Shown in pieces: positions 34,951 to 64,000 of a stretch of 64,000 nt of DNA (position 1 is its first letter; every line of letters begins with the position of its first letter). Origin of the DNA: Krischvirus LF73P4; the sequence record OZ035795.1. One strand, 5' to 3'. The translations under genes and the position numbers were made by a program. Below the pieces are notes generated by a model. It had not been told where the DNA came from. It saw only the letters and a list, made by a program, of their open reading frames with translations, and made no database searches.

Positions 34951-34951
34951 T

Positions 34952-37608: not shown

Positions 37609-37688
37609 TTTTGATTCTCCTTAAGAAAGTGTGTTTCGTTTTGATGTGTGTAGTATAGGGGATCACCGATCCCCTGTCAACAACTTTT
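37609..37688 (-). promoter_or_regulatory. PeSL-type early promoter/stem-loop cassette
   Basis: TTGACA, spacer palindrome GGGGATCGGTGATCCCC, TATACT. Confidence 0.6.
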
Positions 37689-39218: not shown

Positions 39219-39438
39219 TTCTTTTATATGGTACTATAACAGGATTAATACAGCAAGCACCAATTACGTTATGAGCACCACAATTTAAGCATTTATAATC
39301 ATGGAACTTATTAAGGAATCGCCCGAACTCATAACCGACTAACGCCGCGTGTACTTGAGTCTCGATCTCATCCATATCAGCCAATGTTTTAACCTTCATA
39401 ATATAATCCTCAAATACTGGTTTTGCGAAGATGGTCAT
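39202..39438 (-). CDS. Cys-rich small protein
   Basis: CLNCGAH..GACC. Confidence 0.4.
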   Translation of the reverse strand: MTIFAKPVFEDYIMKVKTLADMDEIETQVHAALVGYEFGRFLNKFHDYKCLNCGAHNVIGACCINPVIVPYKRNETEE

Positions 39439-39700
39439 TACATGCTTTTAATGCATCAGTCGAGGTGTCATAGCGAGTATTATCATAGCACCAATAACCA
39501 TCTGTCAACTGATAAATTAATCCATCCTTTTTAGCGTCGATGAAAGACAATTCTTTGAAAGTTTCTACTTTCTTTGCTGATACTCCACGGTCACGGCGTT
39601 TATAGAGTTTAGCTAAAATGCGTTCAGCTTGTTCCTCTTTATCGCCAGACAGATCCCAGATGATGTTTCTGATATGCTTGATTAATTGTTCAGTGGTCAT
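39410..39700 (-). CDS. hypothetical protein
   Basis: 96 aa; PeSL upstream. Confidence 0.45.
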   Translation of the reverse strand: MTTEQLIKHIRNIIWDLSGDKEEQAERILAKLYKRRDRGVSAKKVETFKELSFIDAKKDGLIYQLTDGYWCYDNTRYDTSTDALKACNDHLRKTSI

Positions 39701-39761
39701 ATTTGATTCTCCTTAGTTGGTATGGTTATCATTATACGGGGATTTCTCCCCGTGTCAACAA
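39701..39761 (-). promoter_or_regulatory. PeSL-type early promoter/stem-loop cassette
   Basis: TTGACA, spacer palindrome GGGGAGAAATCCCC, TATAAT. Confidence 0.55.
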
Positions 39762-39983
39762 TTAAATGATCTCTGCTTCACCGTTAAGGAAGAAAGACCA
39801 TGTTTTGTTAGGATAACGAAGCGCCCACGATTCAGCAGTTTTAACACCAGCTTCGAACAATTGACGGCTGGTTACTTTAGCCATACCATCTTCGATGGCA
39901 ACGTTTTCAATAATCATCGGGTACTTAGCGCCACGCATGAAACCGAAGCCAGCGGAAGATTTGATAATTTTAACAGTTGCCAT
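39762..39983 (-). CDS. hypothetical protein (paralog of 38256..38516)
   Basis: Trimmed to MATVKII after the conserved leader. Confidence 0.45.
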   Translation of the reverse strand: MATVKIIKSSAGFGFMRGAKYPMIIENVAIEDGMAKVTSRQLFEAGVKTAESWALRYPNKTWSFFLNGEAEII

Positions 39984-40070
39984 TTTTGATTCTCCTAGAA
40001 AGTGTCGTGTTTCGATGGGTGTATTATGCAATAACACCGGATCGCTGTCAACACTTTCTAAGAAAAATTT
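39984..40070 (-). promoter_or_regulatory. PeSL-type early promoter cassette
   Basis: TTGACA-17-CATAAT; conserved leader. Confidence 0.55.
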
Positions 40071-40355
40071 TTAAACTAATCGAATATAGCCCAGAATTTC
40101 AGCACCTTTAGCCAGTCCTAAAACTTCCCATTCAAGGTCGCCGTAGTCATAATTTGCAACCATCAACTGACCATTTTTCATGCAGCAATCATGAGAGAAA
40201 ATTTGCCCCGCATAAACTACGATAGTAATAAACTTTCCTGATTCTGGCGGTGTGGAAGACAAAGCGACCATATGACCATTCAGCTTAGTAACCAGTGATG
40301 GAACAATAAAATTCGGGCTTACCTTAATACCGTTAAATTCGTTTGTGTCTTTCAT
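40071..40355 (-). CDS. hypothetical protein
   Basis: 94 aa. Confidence 0.45.
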   Translation of the reverse strand: MKDTNEFNGIKVSPNFIVPSLVTKLNGHMVALSSTPPESGKFITIVVYAGQIFSHDCCMKNGQLMVANYDYGDLEWEVLGLAKGAEILGYIRLV

Positions 40356-40702
40356 GCCAGACCTCGCAAAACACTAATAGCATAATCATGCTGGTTATTC
40401 ATAATATCAATTGCATTGTGATAACGAGCTAAACCATCAAGGATAAATTCTTGTTTATCCTGTTTCAGTTTGGTATCACGCGCAGCCATAAGAGCATCAA
40501 GAACAGGTCCAAAGTGATTATCTAATTCATCTTCGGTTGCAATGTTTCCTATTGCCTCGTCGATCCGTGATTCTAATGCTTGCTTTTCGTTGATCACTTG
40601 CTGGGTATATTCCAACACATCAAGAATATCGCGGGTAACGTCGCCATGATAAGGTATTCCCGCATGAAGATGATCAATTAATCGCTGAATATCAATGTTC
40701 AT
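40352..40702 (-). CDS. hypothetical protein
   Basis: 116 aa. Confidence 0.45.
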   Translation of the reverse strand: MNIDIQRLIDHLHAGIPYHGDVTRDILDVLEYTQQVINEKQALESRIDEAIGNIATEDELDNHFGPVLDALMAARDTKLKQDKQEFILDGLARYHNAIDIMNNQHDYAISVLRGLA

Positions 40703-41037
40703 TTGTAACCCTCCTCTGAAAGCACATCCCAGATCGTTGAGTCAAGGTGCATTAAATTCCACATAATAGAGTCATAACTACCGAAGCCAGAAGTAAAAAT
40801 TACATCACACTGGCGATAGGTCTTATGAAAATCGGTGGCTGTCTCTGCATCAATCGGCATATCGTCACCTGAAAGCACCAGACATTTAAGAATCATAACT
40901 CTGTTAGCCGTTGGCGCTTGCTTAGTCTTTTCAGCATATTTTTCGATGATCCGTTTTGCCTTTTCTTCTTTGATACGTCCAGACCAAATCCGGTTTCGGT
41001 ATTGATTCATAATAATTTCAATCACATCATTTTGCAT
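40699..41037 (-). CDS. hypothetical protein
   Basis: 112 aa. Confidence 0.45.
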   Translation of the reverse strand: MQNDVIEIIMNQYRNRIWSGRIKEEKAKRIIEKYAEKTKQAPTANRVMILKCLVLSGDDMPIDAETATDFHKTYRQCDVIFTSGFGSYDSIMWNLMHLDSTIWDVLSEEGYK

Positions 41038-41236
41038 TCTTCACGGTCTCCATAATTGTTTTGTAAGCCAGCTTAAGATGATCACCGAAAAACTTTGCAG
41101 TGTTACCCTTCGGATCGCGAAGCATGGTTTCTACGATCTCATCGGCAGTAACAATTTCTCCTTTCTTTGCTGCATGTTCTACCATATACTTCAAAGTTTC
41201 TTCGGAGGCAAGTGCTGCGGCTACTGGATTAATCAT
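41027..41236 (-). CDS. hypothetical protein
   Basis: 69 aa; PeSL upstream. Confidence 0.45.
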   Translation of the reverse strand: MINPVAAALASEETLKYMVEHAAKKGEIVTADEIVETMLRDPKGNTAKFFGDHLKLAYKTIMETVKNAK

Positions 41237-41300
41237 TTTGGTTCTCCTTTGTTGTCGATGTGTGCATTATGCTATACCCTATTCCGGTTGTCAACACCTA
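41237..41300 (-). promoter_or_regulatory. PeSL-type early promoter cassette
   Basis: TTGACA-17-CATAAT; leader GGAGAACCAAA-ATG. Confidence 0.55.
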
Positions 41301-41304
41301 AAAA

Positions 41305-41336
41305 CGAAAAAGCCACCCTTTCGGATGGCTTTTTGA
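41305..41336 (-). terminator. bidirectional-looking terminator
   Basis: AGCCACCC-tttc-GGATGGCT flanked by A-run and T-run. Confidence 0.6.
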
Positions 41337-41564
41337 TTATATTTTATTCACGTCCATTTGTATAGTAGTGTTTGAATCGACCTTTGCTAAACTAGTTAAA
41401 CATAGTAACCAATTCACCATCCCTTTCCAATGATAACCCTTCCTCGTCTTAGACGGGTCTTCCGATTCGGCAGTAATTGAACACGCGAAAGTATGAGGAA
41501 GCCAAATGGTTGTGTTAATGCTAGTTTTCTTTTACTTCTGATATGTATCCCACGGTGACTAACA

Positions 41565-41963
41565 TTAAGCCAGTCGAGTGAGTTTATAAATTGTTTTAAA
41601 GCATAGAGCTTTGATATCGTCTAAAACGCTCTGTAACGAGCTATCAACATCATTATAAATCTCACTAGCCATTTGCGTTAACTCTTGCAAATAGGCAATT
41701 TCGCTAATCTCCTTGCGGACGACCAACTTTGGCTGATAACGACCAGTGATCCCAATATTGGTTTCAGTGAAATTATCAACCAATTCTTGCATTTCAAGAT
41801 AGAACTCTTCTAGAGCCTTATGTTTTGCATAAGATCCAGGACCAGTTACCCCAAAATGCGCAGAATGCATATAAGTAACACTCATCAGACATTCACCGAT
41901 AAAGCGGTCAACTTTATTAGCCTTTCCCTCTTCGGACGTCTTTAGAAAATCACTGAATTTCAT
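41565..41963 (-). CDS. Dps-like ferritin-fold protein
   Basis: Start at MKFSDF after GGAGAA; HSAHF..KHKALEEF..VDNFTE gives H-x11-H-x14-D-x3-E, the spacing of the Dps ferroxidase ligands. Confidence 0.55.
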   Translation of the reverse strand: MKFSDFLKTSEEGKANKVDRFIGECLMSVTYMHSAHFGVTGPGSYAKHKALEEFYLEMQELVDNFTETNIGITGRYQPKLVVRKEISEIAYLQELTQMASEIYNDVDSSLQSVLDDIKALCFKTIYKLTRLA

Positions 41964-42252
41964 GTTCTCGATTCTCCATATTATGCAACAGAACAAATTG
42001 TTGTGCGGCATATCCCCCCATAATAAAACACTGCCTAGAATCCATACATTTACTACGAGCATACATCTTCATAATATGGGCATGAAATTTCTGGCTGGTT
42101 TCAATGGAAGGAGATATTTTGTTTACATATACTATCATTGCGCCGTCGAAATAATCAGTAAAGTCACCAGTTGGATCATATTGATCAGCACTGACACTTC
42201 CGACCGCAGTCAAGCATATTGCCGCTGTTAGAGTTTTACGAATAAATGACAT
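41950..42252 (-). CDS. small secreted protein
   Basis: Signal-peptide-like N-terminus MSFIRKTLTAAICLTAVGSVSA. Confidence 0.45.
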   Translation of the reverse strand: MSFIRKTLTAAICLTAVGSVSADQYDPTGDFTDYFDGAMIVYVNKISPSIETSQKFHAHIMKMYARSKCMDSRQCFIMGGYAAQQFVLLHNMENREHEIQ

Positions 42253-42320
42253 AAGTCATTCCCCCAGATTGAAAATATTCAGTTATATTTATAATCTGGG
42301 GCTTTATTTATGATTAACTC

Positions 42321-42917
42321 TTATTTGGTAGTACCGTCAATAAAATGTTTACGGCACACAGAAACATATTTATCCTCTGCACCAACTTCGATTTGAGCAC
42401 CATCGCGAATAACATTACCCTCTTTATCTACACGAAGGACCATTGTTGCTTTCTTGCCACAATGACAAATACCCTTCATTTCGACCAGTTTATCAGCAAA
42501 TGCCATTAATGCCGCAGATCCTTCAAATAGATTGCCCTGAAAGTCAGTGCGAAGGCCATAGCACAGTACAGGGATATTAGCATCATCAACAAGCGCACAC
42601 AAGCCTAAAACATGCTCTTTAGTCATAAATTGGGCTTCATCTACAAATACTGCATCTGGACGCCATCGATCCGGTCTACGCTTACCTAACGATTCACGAT
42701 AAACCAAATCGAAAAGATCATCCGATTTAGTGAAGGTGATCGCTGGGGCACTTAGGCCAATTCGGGAAACGACTTCACTTTCTGAATCTCGATTATCAAT
42801 CGCTGGCTTAAGAATTAATACTCGCATATCACGTTCGGTATAGTTATAAGCACTTTGTAACAGAGAAGTTGATTTGCCAGCGTTCATAGATGCATAGTAG
42901 AAATATAATTGCGCCAT
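42321..42917 (-). CDS. tk: thymidine kinase
   Basis: P-loop MNAGKST; FVDEAQF; CHCGKKA; collinear with recalled T4 Tk. Confidence 0.93.
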   Translation of the reverse strand: MAQLYFYYASMNAGKSTSLLQSAYNYTERDMRVLILKPAIDNRDSESEVVSRIGLSAPAITFTKSDDLFDLVYRESLGKRRPDRWRPDAVFVDEAQFMTKEHVLGLCALVDDANIPVLCYGLRTDFQGNLFEGSAALMAFADKLVEMKGICHCGKKATMVLRVDKEGNVIRDGAQIEVGAEDKYVSVCRKHFIDGTTK

Positions 42918-43210
42918 TAATTAATCTCCAAAAATCCAACAAGGCCTAAACCGATATAAGTCCAGATACCAATGAAAAAGATGTTAATGCTCATGGCAAG
43001 GATAAACCCTTTCAGAGTTTTGGGATACCCGACCCAATATTCCCGACCATCTTCTAACCGGATCAACTTATTGCCTTGCGAGTCCATATCAACTACAACA
43101 TGTTTATTTCGAGATTGCAATAGATATTGTTTTACAATCTCTACACCCGCCATAATAACAATAACGAAAATAAAAGTCCACACAACAAGATTAATGATAG
43201 TCTCAAGCAT
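42917..43210 (-). CDS. small membrane protein
   Basis: Two hydrophobic segments. Confidence 0.45.
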   Translation of the reverse strand: MLETIINLVVWTFIFVIVIMAGVEIVKQYLLQSRNKHVVVDMDSQGNKLIRLEDGREYWVGYPKTLKGFILAMSINIFFIGIWTYIGLGLVGFLEIN

Positions 43211-43457
43211 TTTCTATCACCTCCACCCAATCAGGTGTTTCCTGAAAGACTCCTTCACCTTCATGATGGTCGCAACCTTTATTGCTACAGTACATCCACC
43301 AATCCCACATTCCCCACGGTAAACGCTGCATATCGTCGTTACAGCAAGTGAAGATGATAGGCCAACCACATCTACCACATCGGCAGTTTTCCTTCATGTG
43401 TGCGCTATTAGGCTTCATATTCAACCACCACAATATTGATATCCGGCGTAAAATCAT
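43203..43457 (-). CDS. Cys/Trp-rich zinc-finger-like protein
   Basis: CRCGRCGW..CC..C..C..H pattern. Confidence 0.4.
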   Translation of the reverse strand: MILRRISILWWLNMKPNSAHMKENCRCGRCGWPIIFTCCNDDMQRLPWGMWDWWMYCSNKGCDHHEGEGVFQETPDWVEVIENA

Positions 43458-43863
43458 TAATAATTTCTTCTACGCATTCCCACTCAAGACCGCCAATCCC
43501 ACAACCAATTTTAGGAATATAGAACGGCTTAACAGTACCTTCAAATGCGGAGTTAAGTTGTTCGAATCCACGGATGATAGCGGAATATTCAGCATTTGGT
43601 CCTGGACGGAATTGCGTATAAAGATTAATACCCATCCAGTTATAACCATTAACGGTATGATGCCAAACATTAAACTCGCCTAGCTTACTCGCCGTTCCTC
43701 TCGGTGTCTTTTTGTCAGTAGCCAATGCTTGCGGGAACTCTTTCGCGATCTTCGCAGCAATACCAGCACCCATAGTATGAAAACAATTACAACCATGAAT
43801 TAAATGACCGTTTCCTTGTTTAAACAGGGCGATGAGATCGCCCTTTACAGTATCAATAATCAT
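43408..43863 (-). CDS. macro-domain protein (ADP-ribose binding/hydrolase)
   Basis: GCNCFHTMGAGIAAKI and IGCGIGGL resemble macro-domain glycine-rich loops. Confidence 0.6.
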   Translation of the reverse strand: MIIDTVKGDLIALFKQGNGHLIHGCNCFHTMGAGIAAKIAKEFPQALATDKKTPRGTASKLGEFNVWHHTVNGYNWMGINLYTQFRPGPNAEYSAIIRGFEQLNSAFEGTVKPFYIPKIGCGIGGLEWECVEEIINDFTPDINIVVVEYEA

Positions 43864-43878
43864 AATATAAACCTCTCA

Positions 43879-44238
43879 TTAGTCACGGGAAGACAACCCA
43901 GCCATAAAACGGCTTAACAGTGTGTCGCGATAAGCAAAGCATAATTGCTTATCAGGGGCAGTATCACAAAGGTTGCGTTTTGTTTTAGCAAAGCTGGCAA
44001 TACTCAGATCCCACGCTCGATTTTTTCGTTTTTCATCTCGACCTTGTTTGTATGCTTCATCAAGTTCGAGCGCGATAAAATCACTACACATGTTATCATC
44101 ATCACAGAAAGTTTTAATGATCTTTTTGTTGATCTCAAATCCTTTGTATTCGAACTTTGGATAAGGGCGCTCATTACTAGCAAGCGCACCAGCCGAGAAC
44201 ATCATAGCAATCATAGCAATTATTGTCAACTTTTTCAT
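43879..44238 (-). CDS. secreted Cys-containing protein
   Basis: Signal-peptide-like N-terminus. Confidence 0.45.
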   Translation of the reverse strand: MKKLTIIAMIAMMFSAGALASNERPYPKFEYKGFEINKKIIKTFCDDDNMCSDFIALELDEAYKQGRDEKRKNRAWDLSIASFAKTKRNLCDTAPDKQLCFAYRDTLLSRFMAGLSSRD

Positions 44239-44245
44239 ATATTCC

Positions 44246-44836
44246 TCAATAGCGTTTAGTCTTAAGAATGCCTTTACTCTTTAGATGGTTAGCCTTTTTT
44301 AGTACATCATCAGCATAACCTAACCCGGCTTTATAGTTCCATCCAGCATTGTAAGAAGCTAGCGCGAGTCGGATATTACCGTTTCGAACATCCAGCCAGT
44401 ATGCTAACTCATCCATCGCGTAGAATGCAGAAACCTCGCGATTCATGATAAAGTTGATAGTCTGGCGATCACTCATTTTAACACCGCGCTTTGCATTTTT
44501 CGCTTTCACCGTTTTAAGGTAATTTTGAAATAATCCATAAGCATGATGATTTTTCTTTGGTGCTAAGTTTGCACCCGCGCTTGATTCTTGCCATGCGATA
44601 CCCGCCAGGATGTGACCTAAACCCTTTCCGTTATAGCGAATATTCGGATGGTCCTTTTTCAACTTACCGCTTTTCTCGAATTGCTCGCCGTATTGATAGG
44701 CGAAATGTAAATTATCTAGTTGGTGTGCTGTAAAGTTGTCTATCGGCGCTTTTTTGATCGGTGCGCTAGTCGATGCGTGTGTAGCACCAACGGCTAGTGA
44801 CAGACTCAATACTATCGCTTTTAGAACTTTTAACAT
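44246..44836 (-). CDS. secreted lytic transglycosylase (SLT domain)
   Basis: Signal peptide; GIAWQESS catalytic-Glu motif; YNAG. Confidence 0.65.
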   Translation of the reverse strand: MLKVLKAIVLSLSLAVGATHASTSAPIKKAPIDNFTAHQLDNLHFAYQYGEQFEKSGKLKKDHPNIRYNGKGLGHILAGIAWQESSAGANLAPKKNHHAYGLFQNYLKTVKAKNAKRGVKMSDRQTINFIMNREVSAFYAMDELAYWLDVRNGNIRLALASYNAGWNYKAGLGYADDVLKKANHLKSKGILKTKRY

Positions 44837-44869
44837 TAATTTCTCCTGTTTGGCTTAACTTTCTGATTC

Positions 44870-44905
44870 CATAATATAGCCCTATCACCAGAAAGTCAAG
44901 CATTA
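44870..44905 (-). promoter_or_regulatory. possible sigma70-like promoter
   Basis: Minus strand TTGACT..TATATT upstream of the transglycosylase gene. Confidence 0.3.
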
Positions 44906-44922
44906 TTTTTAACCAATTTCCA

Positions 44923-45345
44923 TTATTGGTCTACCTTCAAAACAACCGCCGACATTTTACCCGCCAGTCGTTTTGGATTCTCTATAATCATTCGGCAGCA
45001 TAGACCGTGATATGGCTTACCCTCTTCGATTAGATCTACTGTCATCCCGATCCACATGTTACCGTCAGTAATTTCTAATCGATTCGGACGGTCTTCCATT
45101 TTCAGGAAGTCGAAGATCTCCGGCAAACGAGTTTCTATCTTATTGAATAGTTCCATTGTCTTATGTTCATCGATATGACGATCGGTTAGACGGTCGATCA
45201 TATGCGGACTAAAGCGAATGAAAATATACTCACCATAACCATCATTCAAGCACTTTTCTTTGATCTGTGCATTGGTTTTGCGCATTTCGGTTTCGAAGAA
45301 TCTACGCAGCTTACTACGGCGAACATGTACGTTAATTGTTTCCAT
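44923..45345 (-). CDS. regB: RegB site-specific endoribonuclease
   Basis: RSKLRRFFE, RLEITDGNMWIG and CRMIIEN match recalled T4 RegB; start at METINVH after AAGGA. Confidence 0.85.
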   Translation of the reverse strand: METINVHVRRSKLRRFFETEMRKTNAQIKEKCLNDGYGEYIFIRFSPHMIDRLTDRHIDEHKTMELFNKIETRLPEIFDFLKMEDRPNRLEITDGNMWIGMTVDLIEEGKPYHGLCCRMIIENPKRLAGKMSAVVLKVDQ

Positions 45346-45349
45346 TTTA

Positions 45350-45685
45350 TTATCCTTTCTTAAACAAATTGCGAAGCCAGTATACAAACGGGATTTCTTT
45401 AAACTTGAACTTGTCAATAGTTAATTCTTTAGTAGCAAGATGAATACCATAAGCATCATGTGTAACTATATGCCATTTTCTATAGTCCAAATGTGAACAA
45501 CCGTCTGGATCTAGGTTAATAAGAGTTTCTCGCTCACTAGAATTATTTTTCCACAATTTTGTAATAGGATCGCACATAATTCGACCTAGCGTACCATGAA
45601 TAATCTCACAACGGTAAAGTTTTCCAGCAGTGAGATAGGCGCACCCGTCATAGTCGGTATAAACAAACACTTCTTTAACACTCAT
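45350..45685 (-). CDS. small protein, tandem family (copy 3, internally repeated)
   Basis: Start at MSVKEV after GGAGTA; shares motifs with the next two genes. Confidence 0.45.
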   Translation of the reverse strand: MSVKEVFVYTDYDGCAYLTAGKLYRCEIIHGTLGRIMCDPITKLWKNNSSERETLINLDPDGCSHLDYRKWHIVTHDAYGIHLATKELTIDKFKFKEIPFVYWLRNLFKKG

Positions 45686-45745
45686 TTTAATACTCCTTTG
45701 TTGTTTCGATGGGGGTATATTACTACCCCCGATCATGGGTGTCAA
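45686..45745 (-). promoter_or_regulatory. PeSL-type early promoter/stem-loop cassette
   Basis: TTGACA-17-TAATAT; hairpin GGGGGTAGTAATATACCCCC. Confidence 0.55.
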
Positions 45746-45991
45746 CTACTTTTTCAAGATTTTTTTGAGTGCATTCCAAAGACCTTTATTCCCAGGTTGT
45801 TTTGGTTCTTCGATCAGTGTCCATGTTCGACCGTCTAAGTGTGCACAATTTTTAAGACAAATAAAAATCTGGTGTCCCTTATCATCACGGATATAACCAC
45901 TATTCGCAAATCTTTCATGTGGTGTATATTCATACAGTGTATTAGGTGTAATATACTTGCGGTTACTATAAGGTGTCATCACATACATCAT
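45746..45991 (-). CDS. small protein, tandem family (copy 2)
   Basis: ATGA overlap with upstream stop; GYIRDDKGH..HLDGRTWTL parallels copy 1. Confidence 0.45.
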   Translation of the reverse strand: MMYVMTPYSNRKYITPNTLYEYTPHERFANSGYIRDDKGHQIFICLKNCAHLDGRTWTLIEEPKQPGNKGLWNALKKILKK

Positions 45992-46182
45992 GGTACTAAC
46001 TCCCAACGATCACCGCGAAGATGAGAACATCTACCATCAAGAAGTATTGTAATACGATAACCTATATCATCTTTGATGTAACCGATTGTCGGTGGATTTT
46101 CGTCGTCTCGTGCCGGGGTAAAATCATACATCTTTCCGGGCGTAATATCTTGTCCTTTATTGCTATTGGTATAAACTTGCAT
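45988..46182 (-). CDS. small protein, tandem family (copy 1)
   Basis: AGGAGA RBS; GYIKDDIGY..HLRGDRWEL. Confidence 0.5.
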   Translation of the reverse strand: MQVYTNSNKGQDITPGKMYDFTPARDDENPPTIGYIKDDIGYRITILLDGRCSHLRGDRWELVP

Positions 46183-46203
46183 TTTCTTAATCTCCTATAT
46201 TAA

Positions 46204-46902
46204 CTAACCACGGGTATAGTGTTCCAGAACAACTGTCAGATGAATATATTCTAATAGATCTTTCCAAAAGTCAACATCTGGTTCTTCCGGCATACCGTTT
46301 TTCTTTGCCTCTTCACGCGAGAGTTTAACACGCTCGTAGAGATCTTTCAATTCTTCCCGCACATTATCAAAGGTTCTTTCTCCTAACTTACACGCTAAAA
46401 TAGAAGAACGTCGCGCGAGCGGGAATTGTAGATCACCTGTCTGATAGATTTCAAGTAGCTGATAACCAACACGCAGAGCATGAGAAAGATCTTTCCAGTT
46501 ACTGAAATACTTTTCAGATTTGGCTACCTGCTTTTTGAGATAGCCAGACAAACCCCACATACCAACATGATAGAATTTATCTCGATGTGTTCGGATGTAT
46601 TCCCATTCTCTGGAGGATTCAATCAACATGTTACTAGGAGCGTGCACCATGTCAATAGCGCCGATATCGCCTTTACATGCCAGATTGATAAACCGTTTTA
46701 GACTGAACATATTAACATCAATATCGTCTTTGGTGTTCTTGATACCTTGACCGCTAGTGCTTTGGTCATAGTGTTCTTTCATAGATCCTAAGATAATTTC
46801 TTTCGCAGTCGGAACAAAGATACCACGATAATCTTTATCTGAATTTTCAGTATCAAGGCCGTACAAGTGAGATCCGAAGACCATTTTAACCATTGTATGC
46901 AT
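46204..46902 (-). CDS. nucleotidyltransferase-fold protein (Pol-beta superfamily)
   Basis: N-terminal GSHLYGLDTENSDKD fits the G[GS]-x(9-13)-DxD signature. Confidence 0.5.
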   Translation of the reverse strand: MHTMVKMVFGSHLYGLDTENSDKDYRGIFVPTAKEIILGSMKEHYDQSTSGQGIKNTKDDIDVNMFSLKRFINLACKGDIGAIDMVHAPSNMLIESSREWEYIRTHRDKFYHVGMWGLSGYLKKQVAKSEKYFSNWKDLSHALRVGYQLLEIYQTGDLQFPLARRSSILACKLGERTFDNVREELKDLYERVKLSREEAKKNGMPEEPDVDFWKDLLEYIHLTVVLEHYTRG

Positions 46903-46920
46903 AATTAAACCCTCAGTTGA

Positions 46921-47514
46921 TTAAACGTATTCAGCAACAACATTATGTTTAAAATTACCGCTCCTTTTTGGATTTGGATTTTTCAATCGACTATGTATTA
47001 AATTTTTGTTGTATCCGGTTGCTTTAGACGCTTCGCCAATACTTTGATAAACAACACCATTAACACGAATCGGACGAGACTTATTAAACAGTTTATTCAA
47101 TCCGGCATCATATGCATGGTTTTGGTTTTCTTGCCTCGTTGCGATCTCAAGATTCCAAACACAATTACAAGATTTTACCCCACTTTTATGATTAATTTCA
47201 AGACCTTCACAATCACCTATAAAGTGTTCAGCAACTAGTCTATGAATATAGCTATATTTCTTACTTTCCCCATCATGCAAGCATACATTATAATAACCAT
47301 CACCAGCGCGTTTAGGTCGGAGTAGTTTACCTTTAACACGTTTTATAGTAGGGAACTCACCAAATTGATTTCTCTGGATAAACGGAATCTCGCGGTCTAA
47401 TGAACGGATTCGACCATAGTTAGACACTTGATAAAAACTTTCATATCCTTTAATTGGCTTCCATATCTCAGGGATTTCTACACCATCAATAACAACAAGT
47501 TTAAATTCTTCCAT
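46921..47514 (-). mobile_element. free-standing HNH homing endonuclease
   Basis: NUMOD4-like GYESFYQVSNYGRIRS plus HNH region HRLVAEHF..EINHKSG..NLEIATRQENQNH. Confidence 0.75.
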
Positions 47515-47526
47515 ATTTCACCTCAT

Positions 47527-47557
47527 AAAAATAAAGCCAACCCTTTCGGATTGGCTT
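47527..47557 (-). terminator. rho-independent terminator
   Basis: AGCCAACC-ctttc-GGATTGGCT with A-run on plus. Confidence 0.55.
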
Positions 47558-47562
47558 GTCGA

Positions 47563-47976
47563 TTACATAGATTCCGTAAAGGTACGGGTGATAATATCAA
47601 GTTGTTGTTCGCGTGTCAAGGCGTTGAAGCGGGTAGCATAACCACTGATTCGAATTGTAAGCTGCGGGTACTTCTCAGGATGTTCAACCGCATCAAGAAG
47701 AGTCTCCCGACGCAGTACATTCGCGTTGAGATGATGACCCGCGTTACTATTTACCCCGTTATCAATTGCTAAAGGACGGAAGCTAGTTGTGTGCAGTGCC
47801 AGCGAATCGACGTCTTCTGCGGTGATCACATGGTCTTCTGCGAAAGTTTTACTAACAATTACTTTAGCGCCGATCAGTGCTTTCGGTTCGGATACCAGAA
47901 TCATAGGCGCGAAGTGTCCACCAATAATAGTACCTTTATGCTCACCTTTCATGATTTGAATTGCTTTAAATTCCAT
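47563..47976 (-). CDS. GrcA/YfiD-like autonomous glycyl-radical cofactor
   Basis: C-terminus ..[33 protein letters not shown] nearly identical to recalled E. coli GrcA; a T4 homolog (Y06I) is known. Confidence 0.8.
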
Positions 47977-48111
47977 AATTCACCTCTTATAGATCAGGAC
48001 GTTCGTCATTAATTTTACCAACCAAAACACCATAGAGTTTATCAGGTTGGACTTTACGATTCTTATTGATTGTAGAACGGAATCGACGAGCTACGCTATC
48101 TTTATTTTTCA

Positions 48112-56715: not shown

Positions 56716-56792
56716 TACTGATTCCTCAAATGAAAATATTTATTAACAATTGTCGCTTTGCGACGTGCCGGAGGCACTGACTACTTTTTAAC

Positions 56793-56850
56793 CGAAACAA
56801 ATTTTCTATTATTCTAAAGATCTTTCTTCGTTTTGGTTATGTTTTAACCA
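56793..56850. repeat. intergenic repeat, copy C
   Basis: ccgaaacaaattttctattattctaaagatctttcttcgttttggttat; lies between the gene 35 terminator and gene 3. Confidence 0.6.
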
Positions 56851-56856
56851 ACTGTA

Positions 56857-56887
56857 TAAAAATAAAGCCGACCACGAGGATCGGCTT
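56857..56887 (-). terminator. rho-independent terminator after gene 35
   Basis: AGCCGA-loop-TCGGCT with A-run on plus. Confidence 0.5.
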
Positions 56888-56897
56888 GTTAAAAATG

Positions 56898-58037
56898 TTA
56901 ATCAACATCGAACTCTTTAAAGTTGTTGGATGTGATATGTTTATTGTCTCTAGGTAATTTAAGAAGACTCATAACAGGGTTATCGAAATTGCCGTTATCC
57001 TGAATGTGAGTTGTTCTAATACCGTTAACACCAAATGAAGTAGGACCAGTAGTTTTGACGACTCCACTGATCGGCGTTATTAGTATGTTTCTAATTTTAA
57101 CAATACCTTCATTTGAGTTGGTTGGATATCTGATACAACCAGTGGTAACACTATCAACTCCTTCCGGTACGGTATAGACGGCTTCAAACTTTTCCCATTG
57201 ATCTTTCTGGCTGGCATTATAACGAACGCCAGTTTGATATTGTCCATCAGTGAAGTAGTTGTGATAGAAACGCGCTGTTACGTTGGCTGCGGCTGCGGCA
57301 CTATCACGGAACAATTCAAAGGATATTGATAGTTTGTCACCTGCCTTTATGTTAAAATCTTCAAGTGGTGCGCTGATCTCATCATGAGGCCATTGTATTA
57401 GCTCGAAATGTTCGGCATCTTCGCTAACATATTCAACCGGATAATCTAAAAATCGTTGTGGTGTTCCTGTTATTGCAAGATCGTCTATAGTATCATAAAC
57501 TTTCTCGATCTGTATAGACGAATCTTGACCTTCCCCGTTCGTTGCTTGCATCCCTTCGCACACAATTTTGCCCATTTTAGTAGAATAAATTGCTGCATAG
57601 GATATACGAGGCATTTGCTGTAGCAAAATGTGATTCGGGAATGATACAGATCCCATCTTAGAGAATACAACATCACTTATCGGATCTGCAAACAATTCTC
57701 CATGCGTTGCCATCGCAATGATATAGTCACCTTTCAGCAAAGAGAGATAATCACGCATTGCCAAAACAGCACCGCGACCATAGAATACCTTTTCTTCGTG
57801 TAGTTGTCCAGTTGGAGTAAGAACTTTAAAATTTAGGCCATTTTCATAGCCAGTGCCAACTATCTCCACTCCATTAAATCTAATCCTTGCTGGTTTGGAA
57901 GAATCCGCATTAGATCCGCGCACTTCCAGCTTATACATCACAGAGTTGTTTTCTGAAATGCTTGTAAATGTCGCGGAGTCTTCGTCGAAATGCGCAAACT
58001 TAATTCCAGTATTGCGTAATTCTATCTCTTGTGTCAT
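56898..58037 (-). CDS. 35: long tail fibre hinge protein gp35
   Basis: 379 aa; C-terminal FGVNGIR as in T4 gp35; follows gene 34. Confidence 0.7.
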   Translation of the reverse strand: MTQEIELRNTGIKFAHFDEDSATFTSISENNSVMYKLEVRGSNADSSKPARIRFNGVEIVGTGYENGLNFKVLTPTGQLHEEKVFYGRGAVLAMRDYLSLLKGDYIIAMATHGELFADPISDVVFSKMGSVSFPNHILLQQMPRISYAAIYSTKMGKIVCEGMQATNGEGQDSSIQIEKVYDTIDDLAITGTPQRFLDYPVEYVSEDAEHFELIQWPHDEISAPLEDFNIKAGDKLSISFELFRDSAAAAANVTARFYHNYFTDGQYQTGVRYNASQKDQWEKFEAVYTVPEGVDSVTTGCIRYPTNSNEGIVKIRNILITPISGVVKTTGPTSFGVNGIRTTHIQDNGNFDNPVMSLLKLPRDNKHITSNNFKEFDVD

Positions 58038-58071
58038 AATAACCCCATAGGGGGGCTTTCGCCCCCTTTAA

Positions 58072-61000
58072 TTAGTCTTCCCAGATAAAATCTACGGTAC
58101 GAGTCAAATTATTGGCAATAATTTTAACATTACCAACCTTGATCCAATCACGAACCGTCATAGAGTTCATCAAACCACCTTCGGCAACCACTGCCCCGAT
58201 TTCCTGAGCGGTAGGCTTGTTCTGTTTGGTGTAAATTTCGCCCCATGCAGTCCATTGACCATCTGTACCGGAACGGATATAATGCTTATGAGTACCATCA
58301 GGCGACCAGATTTGGGTAAGGCCGTTTTCATCAGTACCCCATTGCATCAATGTACCATTTTTCTTTTCTGGGTAGGTTTCTTTGATGTTTTGGGTAGTAA
58401 CTCGCATATTCCAGAAACCGATGTTACCGATTGCCGGAGCGGTTGCCGCGCTAGCTTCATGCTTAACAGAAACAATAGGCGCATTATCCATAGTCAGCTT
58501 ACCGACCATTGTATCGCCAGCATTCTTAACAAACTGACGGTTAAGAACTTCGTCAGCGTTTCCTGCGTGTACGATCTGATATTTCTGTCCGGCGATCTCT
58601 GTAGTTAACGTTTGATGACCTGCCTTGATGTTAACACTTCCACCGTGACCGATATTCAGCATACCATCAGAGGAACGAGTCATCGCCGGATTAGACTGAT
58701 CAACAATGTACAAACCGCCTTGTTTCGCATACAGGTTACGACCTGCAATAAAGTCTCTATAGGCTAACGCATCGCCGTCATGTTCCATAGCAAAGGAGTA
58801 ATGCTCGACGACTCCACCATCACTGATTTTACCGAAAGCGATAGCATCACTATCAACGACTTGCGCTGTTCCAGTACCACCAACGATAATAGACCATGAG
58901 TTTTCCATACCTTCCGATGCGGTTGTGCCATGCAGAGTAATTCCGGTGTGACCGTCAACTCCACGCTCACCCAACACCAGATGACCATTACTCGGATCAT
59001 CAGTAGAGTTCTTAGTCACAGACAGAGTTTCAAAGGAACCAGATTTTAAGCACTCTAAATCGCCCTTCACGTTAACGTTTTTATTAAACGTGTAATTGCT
59101 CTCTATGATCTGGTCAATGTCTCTACGCGCCCATTTAGCGGCCTCTACGTTACCCAATTTCAAACTATTCTGAGCGGTTGCCATCTTAGGTAAGAAATTA
59201 GCAAGTGCGTAGTTTAATCCTTTCGGAGTAACAGCAATTCCGTCATGCTGGTAGTTTCCTAGTTCTTGAGTAGAACCTTGCAGATTATCACCAACAAAAC
59301 AGTTTTCCTGAGTAGCAACTTTCAAGAATCCACGACGCGCTTCGGTTGCTTTCCATGTATCCTCTGTCTGAACAACATATTTGAAGTTCTTCGGAGAAAT
59401 TGCTACATTAGCCAGTGTACCAGCCACGGTTTCGGCTTGAGTACCAACTCGGATAATACCTTCTTTACCTTCGGTGGCTTTTTTGCCTTGCAGCTTTTTA
59501 GGCGTGATGATTGTAGTATCATCTTGACCAGCGTCAGTAAGCTGACTAGTTGCAACTTTCGCGACACCTTTTGTATCTTCGGTTGCATCAAGACCACTGA
59601 TCATGATACCCTGCCACAAGTCACCAGTAAGGTTAAGTCCTTGAGTCGGATCTACTTTCAAACGCTGTGCGTTCTCAAAGAAGGTTTTAATCTTCAATGG
59701 AGTAGAAATGCGAGCGTCGTCACGACCTGCGTCAAATTCCGGTTGAGTTGCAATTTCTGCTAAACCATGTAAAGTTTCCGTAGCACGGCGAGTATGCAGT
59801 TTTTTAGGTGTGATAATATGGTTATCACTTTGGCCTAAGTTAGTTTCTTCCTGCGTAGCAATTTCAGCGATACCAGTACGGGATTCGGTAGCAGTACGCT
59901 TGGTTAACGTGCGAGTAGTGATCAGCAATGCATCTTGCGGGGTTGATTCAGTAGCCCCTTGCACTTCCGCGTCAGTTGCCAGATACCCAACACCACGAGA
60001 AGTTTCAGTAGCTTTAACTTCGTTGATGTTTTGCGGAGTAACGATTTTAGCGTGGTCGTTGATGTTATAGATCCCTGTACCAGCTTCACCCCTTAGAGCG
60101 GCAGCATTACCGCCTACCTGAACAATTTCAGCGATACCAGCAAGATCCTCTGACGCTCGACGCTCTTCTAACTTCTTAGGAGTGATTGCGCGAGTATCGT
60201 CTAAACCTTCGTTGGTTTCATGTTGAGTTGCAATTTCCATCACACCACGACGGTCTTCGGTAGCAACACAGTCATTTAACTTTTTAGGTGTAACGATAAC
60301 ATCATCCAGGAAGCTGGAACCAGTATCTTGATGCGTTTCCGCTTGAGTTGCAATGCGAGCAATACCGCGTCGAGTTTCGTTGGCTGTTTTATTAGCCAGA
60401 ACCTTTGGAGTCACCGCAACTTCGTCGCTAGGATTATCTTCATGGTTTTTGTTTGTTTCATCCTGGGTAGCCAGTGCAATTACACCAACACGATCTTTAC
60501 GTGTAGGATCTACTCGTTCTACAATCGGGTGAGCATGTGCAACCAACCAGTATTTCTTACCATCATCACCTTCTGAATAAGAGAACTCCAGATAAGGTAC
60601 ATAATCATTTGCAGCGTTGAAAGACAATTCAGACACTCCCGTCCATGTATCGGTCCCATTGAATGGGTACTCGCTACGCTTAGGAAACTGAACCATGTTT
60701 TTCTGCATAAGGATTTTTGTATCCTCTTCTGAGGTAACGATTCGGCAAGTCTGGTTTCCGTGCATATACTGCATAGAAACTTGGATACGATCACCCGGCT
60801 CGACATTGGTCGGTAAAGTCAAGGTAACATCACGATCACCAAATACTGCAACATAGCTATTAGGGGATAAGCGAGTATCACTAATGATAGGATTCAAGCG
60901 AACAGACTGATCGCCATCCCACAAACGCCATAAGTTTTCCGGTTTGTCAAAGATGAATACACCATGACCGCTACGCTTACCAACAATTTCTTTTACCCCG

Positions 61001-61812
61001 AAAGTACCGATCGATTGTTCTTGCGCACCTTCATGTACTTTTACTGTAACATGGTTGGTTGCAGTCAATCCGTCAAGATCGGTAGTCTGGATCATATCAC
61101 CGTTATTAGCAAACTTAGGAAGCATCAAAACAATGTTACCTAAAGAACTACGACGGAATACCTGATCACCGTTTTGCATCTGAATCGGATCAATAGATGG
61201 CTGTGCATATACCCCGCGCGGCTCCGTTCCCGTCTGGTAAACGTGCCAGCGATTGCGAACAAAAATGAAGTAGTTCATTGCATAAGGGGTAGTACAATAC
61301 CATTTGCGGTTGTTTACCACACCGTTATGATAGAACTCATGACCAGCCGCAAGGAACGATAACTCATTAACACCGCACTTGCCACCGATATCTTTTACTG
61401 TTATAGTGTCGCCCTCTGCCGGATTAGTAGGCATTGAGAATGTCAAGTTTGCAAACTGACAGTCCGCTGCGATATAATCACCGGACTTTAAAGGAGTATC
61501 GCCGGAAGTTGCTGCAACATAATCCCAACGTGGGTCCGTGCGCAGTGCTTGCCATTTAGTCGGGTCAAAGTCACCTGCTGGTTTTGCGATATCTTCTTTT
61601 GCATAATACGGACGGTTTTGATAGATTGTAGTTCCGTATTGATCATAACCGCGAGTTGTGTCATACTGAGTAATACCATTATGGTAATTGAAAAATTCAA
61701 CGTTGACCGCATCCGTTGATGTGTTTTTATCTGCGTATGCTACATTGACGACCTTTTCATTACCAGCGTCAAAGCCAAATGTGGCCTTGAAATGTTGAGA
61801 AAAATCTGCCAT
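58072..61812 (-). CDS. 34: long tail fibre proximal subunit gp34
   Basis: 1246 aa; N-terminus, ATQ.ET..G.DD..ITPKKL repeats and C-terminal GNVKII..FIWED match recalled T4 gp34; TATAAATA upstream. Confidence 0.92.
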   Translation of the reverse strand: MADFSQHFKATFGFDAGNEKVVNVAYADKNTSTDAVNVEFFNYHNGITQYDTTRGYDQYGTTIYQNRPYYAKEDIAKPAGDFDPTKWQALRTDPRWDYVAATSGDTPLKSGDYIAADCQFANLTFSMPTNPAEGDTITVKDIGGKCGVNELSFLAAGHEFYHNGVVNNRKWYCTTPYAMNYFIFVRNRWHVYQTGTEPRGVYAQPSIDPIQMQNGDQVFRRSSLGNIVLMLPKFANNGDMIQTTDLDGLTATNHVTVKVHEGAQEQSIGTFGVKEIVGKRSGHGVFIFDKPENLWRLWDGDQSVRLNPIISDTRLSPNSYVAVFGDRDVTLTLPTNVEPGDRIQVSMQYMHGNQTCRIVTSEEDTKILMQKNMVQFPKRSEYPFNGTDTWTGVSELSFNAANDYVPYLEFSYSEGDDGKKYWLVAHAHPIVERVDPTRKDRVGVIALATQDETNKNHEDNPSDEVAVTPKVLANKTANETRRGIARIATQAETHQDTGSSFLDDVIVTPKKLNDCVATEDRRGVMEIATQHETNEGLDDTRAITPKKLEERRASEDLAGIAEIVQVGGNAAALRGEAGTGIYNINDHAKIVTPQNINEVKATETSRGVGYLATDAEVQGATESTPQDALLITTRTLTKRTATESRTGIAEIATQEETNLGQSDNHIITPKKLHTRRATETLHGLAEIATQPEFDAGRDDARISTPLKIKTFFENAQRLKVDPTQGLNLTGDLWQGIMISGLDATEDTKGVAKVATSQLTDAGQDDTTIITPKKLQGKKATEGKEGIIRVGTQAETVAGTLANVAISPKNFKYVVQTEDTWKATEARRGFLKVATQENCFVGDNLQGSTQELGNYQHDGIAVTPKGLNYALANFLPKMATAQNSLKLGNVEAAKWARRDIDQIIESNYTFNKNVNVKGDLECLKSGSFETLSVTKNSTDDPSNGHLVLGERGVDGHTGITLHGTTASEGMENSWSIIVGGTGTAQVVDSDAIAFGKISDGGVVEHYSFAMEHDGDALAYRDFIAGRNLYAKQGGLYIVDQSNPAMTRSSDGMLNIGHGGSVNIKAGHQTLTTEIAGQKYQIVHAGNADEVLNRQFVKNAGDTMVGKLTMDNAPIVSVKHEASAATAPAIGNIGFWNMRVTTQNIKETYPEKKNGTLMQWGTDENGLTQIWSPDGTHKHYIRSGTDGQWTAWGEIYTKQNKPTAQEIGAVVAEGGLMNSMTVRDWIKVGNVKIIANNLTRTVDFIWED

Positions 61813-61840
61813 TATTGGGTCTCCTTTTATAGTATGTTCA

Positions 61841-61848
61841 TATTTATA
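61841..61848 (-). promoter_or_regulatory. T4-type late promoter TATAAATA
   Basis: Plus-strand TATTTATA (TATAAATA on minus) upstream of gene 34. Confidence 0.6.
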
Positions 61849-61886
61849 AAATAAGGCTTGATAGAAACAAAAGAGGATGATATATT

Positions 61887-62072
61887 ATGGTTAAAGTTGA
61901 TTTGTCAGACGGTGCAAAATGGGTAGTTGACCGAATCCCTGATAAGGATTACAATTATTTTCGCGCAGAACTAAACAATGCAATTCTGCGAGTTATGGAG
62001 AAATACGGGTATGATCGTGAAGTATCTAGCTCGTTTGATGAGTCTGTTGTTGTGAGAGTGGAGAGAACTTAA
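61887..62072 (+). CDS. small hypothetical protein
   Basis: 61 aa; AAGAGGA RBS; immediately upstream of rnh. Confidence 0.45.
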   Translation: MVKVDLSDGAKWVVDRIPDKDYNYFRAELNNAILRVMEKYGYDREVSSSFDESVVVRVERT

Positions 62073-62074
62073 TT

Positions 62075-63022
62075 ATGACGTATAACCCGTTTACAAAAAC
62101 TACCGCTACACTTAATGATTTCTTTGATGATCCAGAAGATAAACTGCCGGAAGGTGTGCATTTGATTGATATGTCGCAGCTTATGATTGCTACTATCTCG
62201 CATACCTTTAAACCGGAAGATCCTATTAATGAAGGCATGATCCGTCATCTTATTCTTGACACCATGCGTTATAATATGACAAAATTCAAAGATCAATACC
62301 CAATCACGGTACTTGCTTTTGATTCAAGCAAAGGTTACTGGCGACGTGATATCGCACCTTACTATAAACGCAACCGTAAGGAAAAACGAGACGCAGATCC
62401 GCGTGATTGGGAGATGATCTTTGCTGCGATCAATAAGATCACCGAAGAGTTTAAAGAGAACATGCCTTATCACGTTATTAAGGTTGACAAAGTTGAAGCA
62501 GATGATATAATCGCTGTGTTAACTAAAAAGTTTTCTGTAGAAGGTCGTAAGGTGCTAATCAACTCCGGCGATGGTGACTACACACAGTTGCACAAATACA
62601 AAAATGTGAAACAGTGGGCGCCAGTACAGAAAGCATGGAAGAAATGCAAATATGGTAGCCCTTACAAAGACCTTATGGTAAAATGTGTTAAGGGTGACGC
62701 AAAAGACGGTGTGGCTTCTGTCAAGTGTCGTAGTGATTTCATTATCTCTCGACTGGAAGGGGAACGAGCTAAACCAGTTCCAACCAAATGGTTGGAGCAA
62801 ATTTTCGATGCCGATGATCCAAAGTCTTTGATGACAGAGGAAGAAGCACGACGATTTGACGAAAACCGCGAACTTATTGATTTCGATTACATCCCAGATG
62901 ATATTCAGAATCAGATTCTGGAGTCATGGGAAAAATCTAAACCAGCACCACGCGGTAAAATTTATAACTATTTTGTAACAAATGCGTTAGTTAAAATGTT
63001 GCAGAAAATTAGTGAGTTCTAA
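62075..63022 (+). CDS. rnh: RNase H (5'-3' exonuclease / flap endonuclease)
   Basis: Collinear with recalled T4 RNase H (GYWRRD, MPY..K.EADD, SSDGDFTQLHKY, VLIDFDYIPD, PRGKIY.YFV). Confidence 0.93.
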   Translation: MTYNPFTKTTATLNDFFDDPEDKLPEGVHLIDMSQLMIATISHTFKPEDPINEGMIRHLILDTMRYNMTKFKDQYPITVLAFDSSKGYWRRDIAPYYKRNRKEKRDADPRDWEMIFAAINKITEEFKENMPYHVIKVDKVEADDIIAVLTKKFSVEGRKVLINSGDGDYTQLHKYKNVKQWAPVQKAWKKCKYGSPYKDLMVKCVKGDAKDGVASVKCRSDFIISRLEGERAKPVPTKWLEQIFDADDPKSLMTEEEARRFDENRELIDFDYIPDDIQNQILESWEKSKPAPRGKIYNYFVTNALVKMLQKISEF

Positions 63023-63032
63023 GGGTTGACAT

Positions 63033-63632
63033 ATGAAAGAACTTGAATTAAAATACTATGCACACTCACAAATTGGCGTCGAAACCATCTGTGATTTGTG
63101 GGTGGCAATGTATGACGGATACAATCTCTTAGACCGAGATAACATTCTAAAACACGAATTTTATTATGATACCGAAGATCATGCGCTACGTCAAAAAGGA
63201 ATTTATGCACGACTTGACTGTCGAAAATCAGAGATCATGGTCAAAATGGGTGATAATGAATCTGGACTATTCAACCGCGAGGAAATGACATTTTCAAATT
63301 GGGATGAGTTTGTCCATTTTATTGATAGTATAGGGGTAAACTCAGACTATATCACTACAACAATGCAAGTAATGACATATCGCAAGTCATTGACTATAGA
63401 TATGGGTTGTGGTATAGTGGAAATGTGCAAAGACACTTTCTATTATGGCAAAGTAGGCGAAGGATTGGGCGACACTGCTCATTATGAACTTGAGTTCGAG
63501 TTAAAATCAGGTGATGAAAAAGCACTTGACATTATCCGAGAAATGATGCTAGAATATGTGGGTGACGATTTACGTCCTAGCGAAATCTCAAAAGCTGAAC
63601 GTGGTTTTCAATTAATGACGAAAGAGGGTTAA
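63033..63632 (+). CDS. CYTH-domain protein (triphosphate tunnel metalloenzyme-like)
   Basis: N-terminal E-x-E-x-K (KELELKY) and C-terminal ELEFELK; about 200 aa. Confidence 0.5.
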   Translation: MKELELKYYAHSQIGVETICDLWVAMYDGYNLLDRDNILKHEFYYDTEDHALRQKGIYARLDCRKSEIMVKMGDNESGLFNREEMTFSNWDEFVHFIDSIGVNSDYITTTMQVMTYRKSLTIDMGCGIVEMCKDTFYYGKVGEGLGDTAHYELEFELKSGDEKALDIIREMMLEYVGDDLRPSEISKAERGFQLMTKEG

Positions 63633-63636
63633 TATT

Positions 63637-63912
63637 ATGACTGAACAGAAAAAAGAAAAAGTAGTATTTGACGAAAATGTACACGGAAATACCCTGGCAC
63701 AACTGATTAAAGAAGCCAGCGATCAGAAAACCATTCAAGAAGCATACGGCGATAAGATCAAAGAGATCAAACAGCGTGCTAAAGAAGAATTAGGCGTAGA
63801 CGGTAAAATGTGGGGCATTCTGTTTAAACTGTATCACCAGCAACAGCGCGAAACCTTCGAAGCAGAACGCGATGAAGCGGTAGAACTCTATGATCGGGTG
63901 TTCAATGCTTAA
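63637..63912 (+). CDS. small protein at the T4 dsbA position
   Basis: 91 aa between rnh and gene 33; identity not verified. Confidence 0.4.
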   Translation: MTEQKKEKVVFDENVHGNTLAQLIKEASDQKTIQEAYGDKIKEIKQRAKEELGVDGKMWGILFKLYHQQQRETFEAERDEAVELYDRVFNA

Positions 63913-64000
63913 TGAACATGCGGTAAAAGCCGCGAATAAAACAGCAAACGGTCTTGCAATCGAAAAACTGGTTGTTGAAGAGGGATTGACTTATCTTGAA
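63905..64000 (+). CDS. 33: late-transcription accessory protein gp33, 5' partial
   Basis: GLAIEKLVVEEGLTYLE matches recalled T4 gp33 GFIIEKMVEEFGMSYLE; runs off the window. Confidence 0.6.
   Translation, partial: MLNEHAVKAANKTANGLAIEKLVVEEGLTYLE

Follow-up and report, generated by a model that had tools for sequence, protein, structure and literature searches.

The window analyzed here, a 64,000-nucleotide stretch of Krischvirus LF73P4 (OZ035795.1), carries on its minus strand gene 34, gene 35, a terminator, a copy of a hairpin-forming intergenic repeat (R), two GC mini-hairpins, a late-promoter-like motif, and genes 3, 1, 57A, and 57B, in that order (Table 1). The window derives from a T4-type coliphage of the RB49/phi1/JSE kind and is 92 to 99% identical to 58 Krischvirus records in GenBank. 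Its gp35 gene has 96 to 99% nucleotide identity to the JSE and KMB43 counterparts, and the region upstream of gene 3 is 100% identical to that upstream of gene 3 in JSE. The 3' end of gp35 shows the GC-rich hairpin and T-run of an intrinsic terminator, and the same terminator precedes R in the gp35-R-gp36 setting of JSE and KMB43. T4-type late promoters read TATAAATA and lie about 20 to 30 nt upstream of the start codon; on the basis of this established T4 knowledge, we take TAATAAATA, located approximately 21 nt upstream of the gene 3 ATG and outside R, to be a candidate late promoter. In JSE, an exact TATAAATA stands at the corresponding site of gene 36, again downstream of R and outside it. 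We further observe that the 14 nt adjoining R on the gp35 side, ACTGTATAAAAATA (56851-56864), recur in JSE in reverse complement at 65568-65581, beside the native gene-3 copy of R, which makes an extra short inverted match. The interior of gene 34 (59737-60378) contains four copies of a 42-nt repeat, spaced 120 to 252 nt and 67 to 74% identical to the reference copy, which probably encode repeated structural motifs of the proximal fiber.

TABLE 1 Features of the junction, other R copies, and blocks matching JSE, in window coordinates (PeSL, promoter-early stem-loop)
Feature	Position	Strand	Basis or remark
gp34	58072-61812	-	PHROG match; at least 96% nucleotide identity to annotated JSE
Gene 35, long tail fiber proximal connector	56898-58037	-	phrog_1154, E = 6e-128
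Gene 35 intrinsic terminator	56865-56887	-	9-bp stem with 5 G-C pairs, then T-run; TATTTTTATA
R core, junction copy	56777-56851	-	Covariance model, 90 bits
GC mini-hairpin 1, GTGCC-TCC-GGCAC	56765-56777	-	Sequence and fold
GC mini-hairpin 2, GTCGC-AAA-GCGAC	56752-56764	-	Weakly terminator-like
Candidate late promoter, TAATAAATA	56737-56745	-	Near match to TATAAATA, read from sequence
Gene 3, tail tube terminator/tail completion protein	56125-56715	-	phrog_45
Gene 1 (dNMP kinase)	55453-56109	-	PHROG match; at least 96% nucleotide identity to JSE
gp57A	55160-55426	-	PHROG match; at least 96% nucleotide identity to JSE
gp57B	54693-55163	-	PHROG match; at least 96% nucleotide identity to JSE
R core, distal to DprA-like ORF	13134-13208	-	Covariance model, 76 bits
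R core, proximal to DprA-like ORF	12985-13059	-	Covariance model, 70 bits
Exchange interval, 109-bp homology zone of both parental contexts	56743-56851		Flank alignments overlap
Second breakpoint, PeSL cassette, 90-bp overlap	37609-37698		Joins JSE 127054 to JSE 44910
Block matching JSE 89125-127054	1-37698	+	blastn
Block matching JSE 44910-65561	37609-56851	+	blastn
Block matching JSE 152500-145246	56743-64000	-	blastn

R measures about 105 bp and consists of a 75-nt core followed by two 13-nt GC hairpins. A repeat search of the window grouped three 74-nt copies with 68 to 74% identity as family D10 (12986-13059, 13135-13208, and 56778-56851), and a covariance model built from the R family itself and then run on the 64-kb window identifies exactly these three sites and no other, all on the minus strand, with E values from 9e-15 to 9e-11. 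The presence of this repeat family in the window is far beyond chance. The initial annotation had proposed a third repeat copy between gene 35 and gene 3, within the order gene 35, terminator, repeat, and genes 3, 1, 57A, and 57B; the copy is indeed there, within 56743-56851, and the layout is borne out by PHROG matches and identity to JSE, with distal fiber genes 36 to 38 not adjacent to gene 35 in the window. The repeat described at 13 kb is likewise present, as two separate copies rather than a single long one, and the repeated unit proves to be the 75-nt core with the two GC hairpins after it.

In the predicted fold and the alignment, the junction copy of R has an outer stem, in which 56845-56850 pairs with 56778-56783, an inner stem, in which 56825-56839 pairs with 56789-56803, and an A/U-rich apical loop that includes GATCTT. 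We aligned 18 distinct R sequences, representing four Krischvirus paralogue types and three prophage types. The outer stem, TGRTTA with TARTCA, is paired in 97% of the cells of this alignment; the inner stem has 12 to 15 bp, with compensatory double changes in 9 of 15 pairs, compared to 0 to 2 in register-shifted controls; and the apical loop spans 21 to 27 nt, with the motif RATCTT kept. Altogether, 85% of cells are paired, versus 29 to 49% in slid controls, and none of 500 shuffles reached the observed pairing and covariation values, which have to be read with the caveat that the structure was derived from the very sequences tested. This strong covariation suggests that R is a two-stem hairpin held by compensatory changes, that is, a conserved structured element. 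At the position of mini-hairpin 1, most R copies have a hairpin of nonhomologous sequence, with none clear in the proximal copy, and the mini-hairpins show some compensatory changes among copies, from G-C to C-G (for example, TCGC-GAA-GCGA versus TCCC-GAA-GGGA). With respect to strand, we count 24 G·U pairs in the inner stem and 9 in the outer stem of the gene-sense strand, versus 10 in the antisense inner stem, which mildly favors an RNA of the sense strand; folding energies do not separate the two strands.

When both R loci and the prophage noncoding region were searched against Rfam 15, the best scores were 9 to 22 bits against thresholds of 44 to 81 (E values of at least 0.46), and a promoter scan of R at either locus found no consensus sigma-70 promoter. 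By eye, TAGAAT can be taken for a -10 element with weak -35-like hexamers 17 to 18 nt upstream; we do not call this a promoter, because the hexamer changes to TAGAAC in the distal copy and conservation is highest in what would be the spacer. A late promoter inside R was rejected as well, since the TATAAATA-like motifs sit downstream of R, and so was a coding sequence, since stop codons are present and the copies differ by 1-nt indels. We know of no convincing fit of R to Fur, IHF, or LexA sites.

A search for further copies of the repeat, as suggested by the initial annotation, shows four copies of R in nearly all Krischvirus records (231 sites in 58 records), and sensitive blastn against sequenced phages finds none outside Krischvirus. 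Two of the four sites precede genes 3 and 36, and the other two, in tandem, precede a DprA-like ORF; they lie in conserved core regions adjoining genes 3, 36, and 24. All copies are co-oriented with the downstream gene, and an intrinsic terminator lies a short way ahead of three of them. In JSE and KMB43, the two single copies occur in the orders gene 2-(small ORF)-R-gene 3 and gp35-terminator-R-gene 36; the gene-3 and gene-36 copies are mutually inverted, 93.6% identical, and approximately 87 kb apart. The DprA-like ORF directly downstream of the tandem copies (12293-12880, minus strand) carries the label recombination mediator (phrog_768), and its Pfam DNA_processg_A score of 22.3 bits is below the threshold of 29.6; we found no link between this ORF and recombination at R. 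Some Krischviruses have an insertion of about 590 bp directly after the second R mini-hairpin and before gene 3 (L009 2148-2741; L138 and L141 1831-2364), which in L138 and L141 encodes an HNH_3 homing endonuclease, and this position indicates that the 3' edge of R is a module boundary. A literature search for this repeat or for Krischvirus inversions found nothing, and R appears to be undescribed so far.

Beyond the phage records, a degenerate scan detected R-like elements with 75 to 78% identity over 75 to 84 nt in IMG/VR contigs of about 35 kb, which represent a low-GC prophage found in 56 to 58 of 5426 complete E. coli genomes (about 1%). Each prophage has one R-like copy, located in a 1.26-kb unannotated gap between divergent genes. 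In E. coli PK8568 (NZ_CP080126.1, at about 2407.9 kb; L083 9354-10614) and in L026 (7753-8999), the R-like hairpin opens this gap, which is rich in small GC hairpins with GAA and GNA loops; the prophage has about 40% GC. A promoter-like site 45 nt upstream of the R-like element and a terminator-like site approximately 250 nt downstream suggest a discrete noncoding RNA. Scanning GTDB for the element with a 21-base degenerate pattern yielded chance seeds only, and a looser structural pattern, applied to IMG/VR and JGI metagenomes, returned only the Krischvirus and prophage groups again. The two groups also have in common an LprI-family (lysozyme-inhibitor-like) gene (JSE 160266-161084; L026 12150-12572; L083 13793-14572), whose amino acid identity of about 88% is an indication of recent exchange between the virulent Krischvirus and the temperate prophage. 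A small ORF (JSE 126111-126377) is a second feature common to JSE and the prophage; we considered it as a DNA-binding partner of R common to both groups and rejected it, since it is not universal and is absent from the window's phage. This comparative sequence evidence makes R a candidate new cis-regulatory motif of phages, at either the RNA or the DNA level.

Local blastn of the whole JSE genome against the window resolves the latter into three blocks (Table 1), of which the middle one includes window 51085-56851, corresponding to JSE 59802-65561 on the plus strand. No record covers a 2.7-kb query across the junction as a single match; the two parts of this query, 55400-56851 and 56743-58100, match two different places on opposite strands of the same records. 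The flanks match the relatives up to 56851 and from 56743, respectively, and the repeat therefore lies exactly at the synteny break, as the initial annotation had it. The comparison with JSE, an RB49-type genome, reproduces this break and also reveals a second breakpoint, at 37609-37698, that had been missed. It falls in a PeSL (promoter-early stem-loop), a type of mobile regulatory cassette known from phages of the RB49/phi1 type (Arbiol et al. 2010, PMC2839356; Comeau et al. 2014, PMC4122927), and brings the region that precedes an HNH endonuclease and gene 30 next to a block of early genes normally located about 82 kb away. Dozens of minus-strand PeSL cassettes (TTGACA, stem-loop, TATAAT-like) occur between 30170 and 54670 of the window, in repeat families D1-D9 and D11 (e.g., 32572-32629, 37641-37698, and 52348-52405) that match elements of Arbiol et al. 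2010 (PMC2839356).

In a self-comparison of JSE, just two repeat pairs reach 90 nt in length and also exceed 90% identity, namely, the R pair (110 nt, 93.6%, inverted) and a PeSL pair in direct orientation at 44.9 and 127 kb (94 nt, 93.6%). The two breakpoints of the window are exactly these two pairs, and since they match the two best long repeat pairs, the junction is a chimeric R made of the gene-36 and gene-3 copies. Relative to KMB43, it resembles the gene-36 copy at the AGAAAA indel and the gene-3 copy at three SNPs farther downstream, with a single switch within about 30 nt; the exact stretches common to the two R copies in relatives are approximately 49 to 65 nt long. If P stands for PeSL, the JSE circle can be written A-P-B-R-C-P-D-R' and the window A-P-D-R'-B'. 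No ORF is cut, and the genes at the breakpoints keep their own R or PeSL cassette directly upstream. These comparisons show that the joint is chimeric and homology mediated, with R serving only as homology. Window stretches 34382-35155, 46915-47515, and 50689-51085 are without a JSE counterpart, a 197-amino-acid ORF (46921-47514) stands in place of the JSE homing endonuclease EpJSE_00101, and JSE ORF 126111-126377 is missing from the window; the unmatched stretches are ordinary hyperplastic-region variation.

Neither joint recurs in the 58 GenBank Krischvirus records (R joint, 0/58; PeSL joint, 0/58), and a search with an anchored gp35-R-gene 3 pattern had no match in IMG/VR, JGI metagenomes, or GTDB genomes. 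The standard order, gp35-R-gp36 and gene 2-R-gene 3, is found in all 58 records and in 3 IMG/VR or metagenome contigs, as well as in 14 further assemblies that encode gp3 or gp1 identical to that of the window, and no single-inversion intermediate occurs among the approximately 75 assemblies of relatives. The gp35-R-gene 3 synteny break is unique to this assembly and is not a normal Krischvirus feature. Nor, by all of these records, contigs, and assemblies, is the break a property of RB49-type genomes. The 13-kb repeat locus, which had been regarded as a second variable junction, is collinear over 100% of a 1.6-kb query in 58 of 58 records, and for R as a dedicated recombination site we see no indication, R being the best inverted homology in the genome. 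The exact gp35 protein of the window is otherwise found only in the Logan k-mer assembly of run ERR12949693, whose reads probably derive from this phage; the gp35 contig stops 30 nt inside R, and because the Logan contigs break there, they carry no linkage information. Two linear records, Skers (MW748999.1), which is about 10 kb shorter than its relatives, and pEJ01 (OP114734.1), end 18 nt past the gene-3 copy of R, which suggests that some assemblies break at R.

Homologous exchange between two inverted copies of R would give exactly the junction observed, in that the upstream flank of the gene-36 copy, consisting of gp35 and its terminator, would have been joined, inside R, to the latter part of the gene-3 copy and the flank that follows it, and a second exchange between the PeSL pair (37609-37698) would be needed for the order seen in the window. 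We lean slightly toward this exchange having arisen in silico, as a mis-join, which has about an even chance of being correct and seems somewhat more likely than an exchange in the phage; an assembler or finishing step would have taken the other route through two collapsed repeats. A-D-B'-C' is a valid path of this kind that forms a single circle, and if a single circle is required, one wrong A-D join forces all other joins. The placement of each of the two breakpoints in a repeat, with overlaps of 90 to 109 bp, argues for a mis-join, as do the lack of either joint in any relative and of an intermediate, the ERR12949693 contig that ends in R, and the two records that end past R. On the other hand, the joint is seamless, with a single-crossover SNP pattern relative to KMB43, and with exact identity of only about 49 to 65 nt, below the k-mer size or read length that most current assemblers work with, the R copies should be resolved. 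T4-type phages recombine very efficiently on short homologies. A genuine double inversion by UvsX/UvsY-type homologous recombination, with the isomer fixed in this isolate, is a serious contender, if on balance a doubtful one: the R-R segment would have been inverted first, making the 44.9-kb/127-kb PeSL pair inverted, and a subsequent PeSL inversion would have led to A-D-B'-C'. The breakpoints are the two best homologies of the genome, as expected for homologous recombination, the hybrid R has the single-crossover pattern relative to KMB43, and exact repeats of about 50 to 65 nt should not confuse modern assemblers. Moreover, both exchanges lie in intergenic cassettes, so that no ORF is cut, the cassettes stay directly upstream of the breakpoint genes, and the rearranged genome should be viable, and experiments in phi1 and RB49 have demonstrated exchange between PeSLs (PMC2839356). 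Such a history would nevertheless take two independent rare events in one lineage, with the single R inversion seen in none of about 75 assemblies; both events would have to be very recent, given that the window is 97 to 99% identical to relatives with the standard order; and a single wrong repeat join would naturally yield this pattern as well.

We consider it very improbable that R is the dedicated site of a site-specific invertible-segment switch caught in its flipped state, as known from Gin/gix of Mu and Cin/cix of P1. Such a switch would fit the inverted repeats, one end of which adjoins tail fiber genes 35 and 36, and the dyad symmetry within R, but no invertase, integrase, or recombinase is annotated among the 277 JSE features, the exchange is intergenic and leaves coding sequence unchanged, and the segment is about 87 kb long. 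Furthermore, an unrelated second repeat, the PeSL, has been exchanged too, two more R copies lie in tandem elsewhere and single R-like elements in E. coli prophages, and all other genomes are in one state. Even less credible is a lineage in which gp35-R-gene 3 is the normal order, with R as a regulatory or recombination signal at variable junctions; R does sit at the junction, but all relatives at 92 to 99% identity are T4-like in order, and the R locus at 13 kb is invariant in position.

The lasting result, in our view, is R, an apparently undescribed cassette with a hairpin that covariation supports. R may be a cis-acting structured RNA in read-through transcripts, where it could act as a processing or stability cassette and may use a host factor common to both phage groups, a proposal that we make with low confidence; at the DNA level, it may act as a dyad-symmetric protein site or an extruded hairpin. 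A regulatory role, which the initial annotation had raised as a possibility, seems plausible from the conserved structure. It is rather unlikely that the following holds in full: that R is a new structured cassette, probably a cis RNA hairpin, exchanged horizontally between Krischvirus and prophage, and that 87-kb flips in vivo led to a viable double-inversion isomer. Under this compound reading, genes 34-35 would be separated from genes 36-38 in a fixed, viable isomer. If the rearrangement is real, the phage would be the first of its genus seen to depart from the T4-type order of core genes, intergenic cassettes of about 100 bp would drive large inversions, beyond the gene-sized shuffling by PeSLs, and genes 34-35 would be separable from genes 36-38 without loss of viability. 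If it is an artifact, the record needs correction, and R and the PeSL pair are assembly traps for the genus. Either way, the occurrence of R in both Krischviruses and an E. coli prophage would point to the exchange of noncoding modules between virulent and temperate coliphages.

Among known systems, R resembles the PeSLs in being a short repeated intergenic cassette with stem-loops, in the same phages, that offers homology for module shuffling. It differs from them in several respects. PeSLs have a sigma-70-like early promoter (TTGACA-N17-TATAAT), which is clear in those of the window, whereas R is without one, and the architecture of R, a 75-nt two-stem hairpin with two mini-hairpins, is not that of a PeSL. 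The PeSL promoter is accompanied by a stem-loop that can act as a terminator; in R, the second mini-hairpin is weakly terminator-like. While PeSLs occur in many copies between small early genes in hyperplastic regions, R has four copies per genome in core regions, two upstream of late genes 3 and 36 and two upstream of the DprA-like ORF, and, unlike PeSLs, is common to a temperate E. coli prophage family. R thus lacks what defines a PeSL in promoter, copy number, and location, and a term search of PMC2839356 and PMC4122927 finds no mention of it.

The arrangement of two inverted repeats flanking an inverted-looking segment is similar to plastid inverted-repeat flip-flop and herpesvirus segment inversion, and one repeat end abuts tail fiber genes, as in the Gin/Cin tail fiber segments of Mu and P1. 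In contrast to inverted-repeat isomerization, the R repeats are only about 105 bp long and 94% identical, and the alternative state, which may be an artifact, is seen in one of about 75 assemblies. With respect to Gin and Cin, the JSE annotation has no serine invertase beside the segment, and there are no swapped tail fiber coding ends, the exchange having its place after the gp35 stop codon and terminator and ahead of the candidate promoters of genes 3 and 36. The breakpoints at the best repeat pairs, together with the k-mer assembly of ERR12949693 that ends in R, are in line with repeat-induced mis-joins by an alternative Eulerian path, although a modern assembler would hardly be expected to fail on repeats this short. 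As for the element itself, the Rfam search shows no sequence or family relationship of R to mRNA processing hairpins, and R differs from the RNase III sites of T7, such as R1.1, in its large apical loop (21 to 27 nt) and its AU-rich, mismatched stem. It may nevertheless resemble these sites, which we take to be long imperfect hairpins with internal loops between co-oriented genes in phages of the same host.
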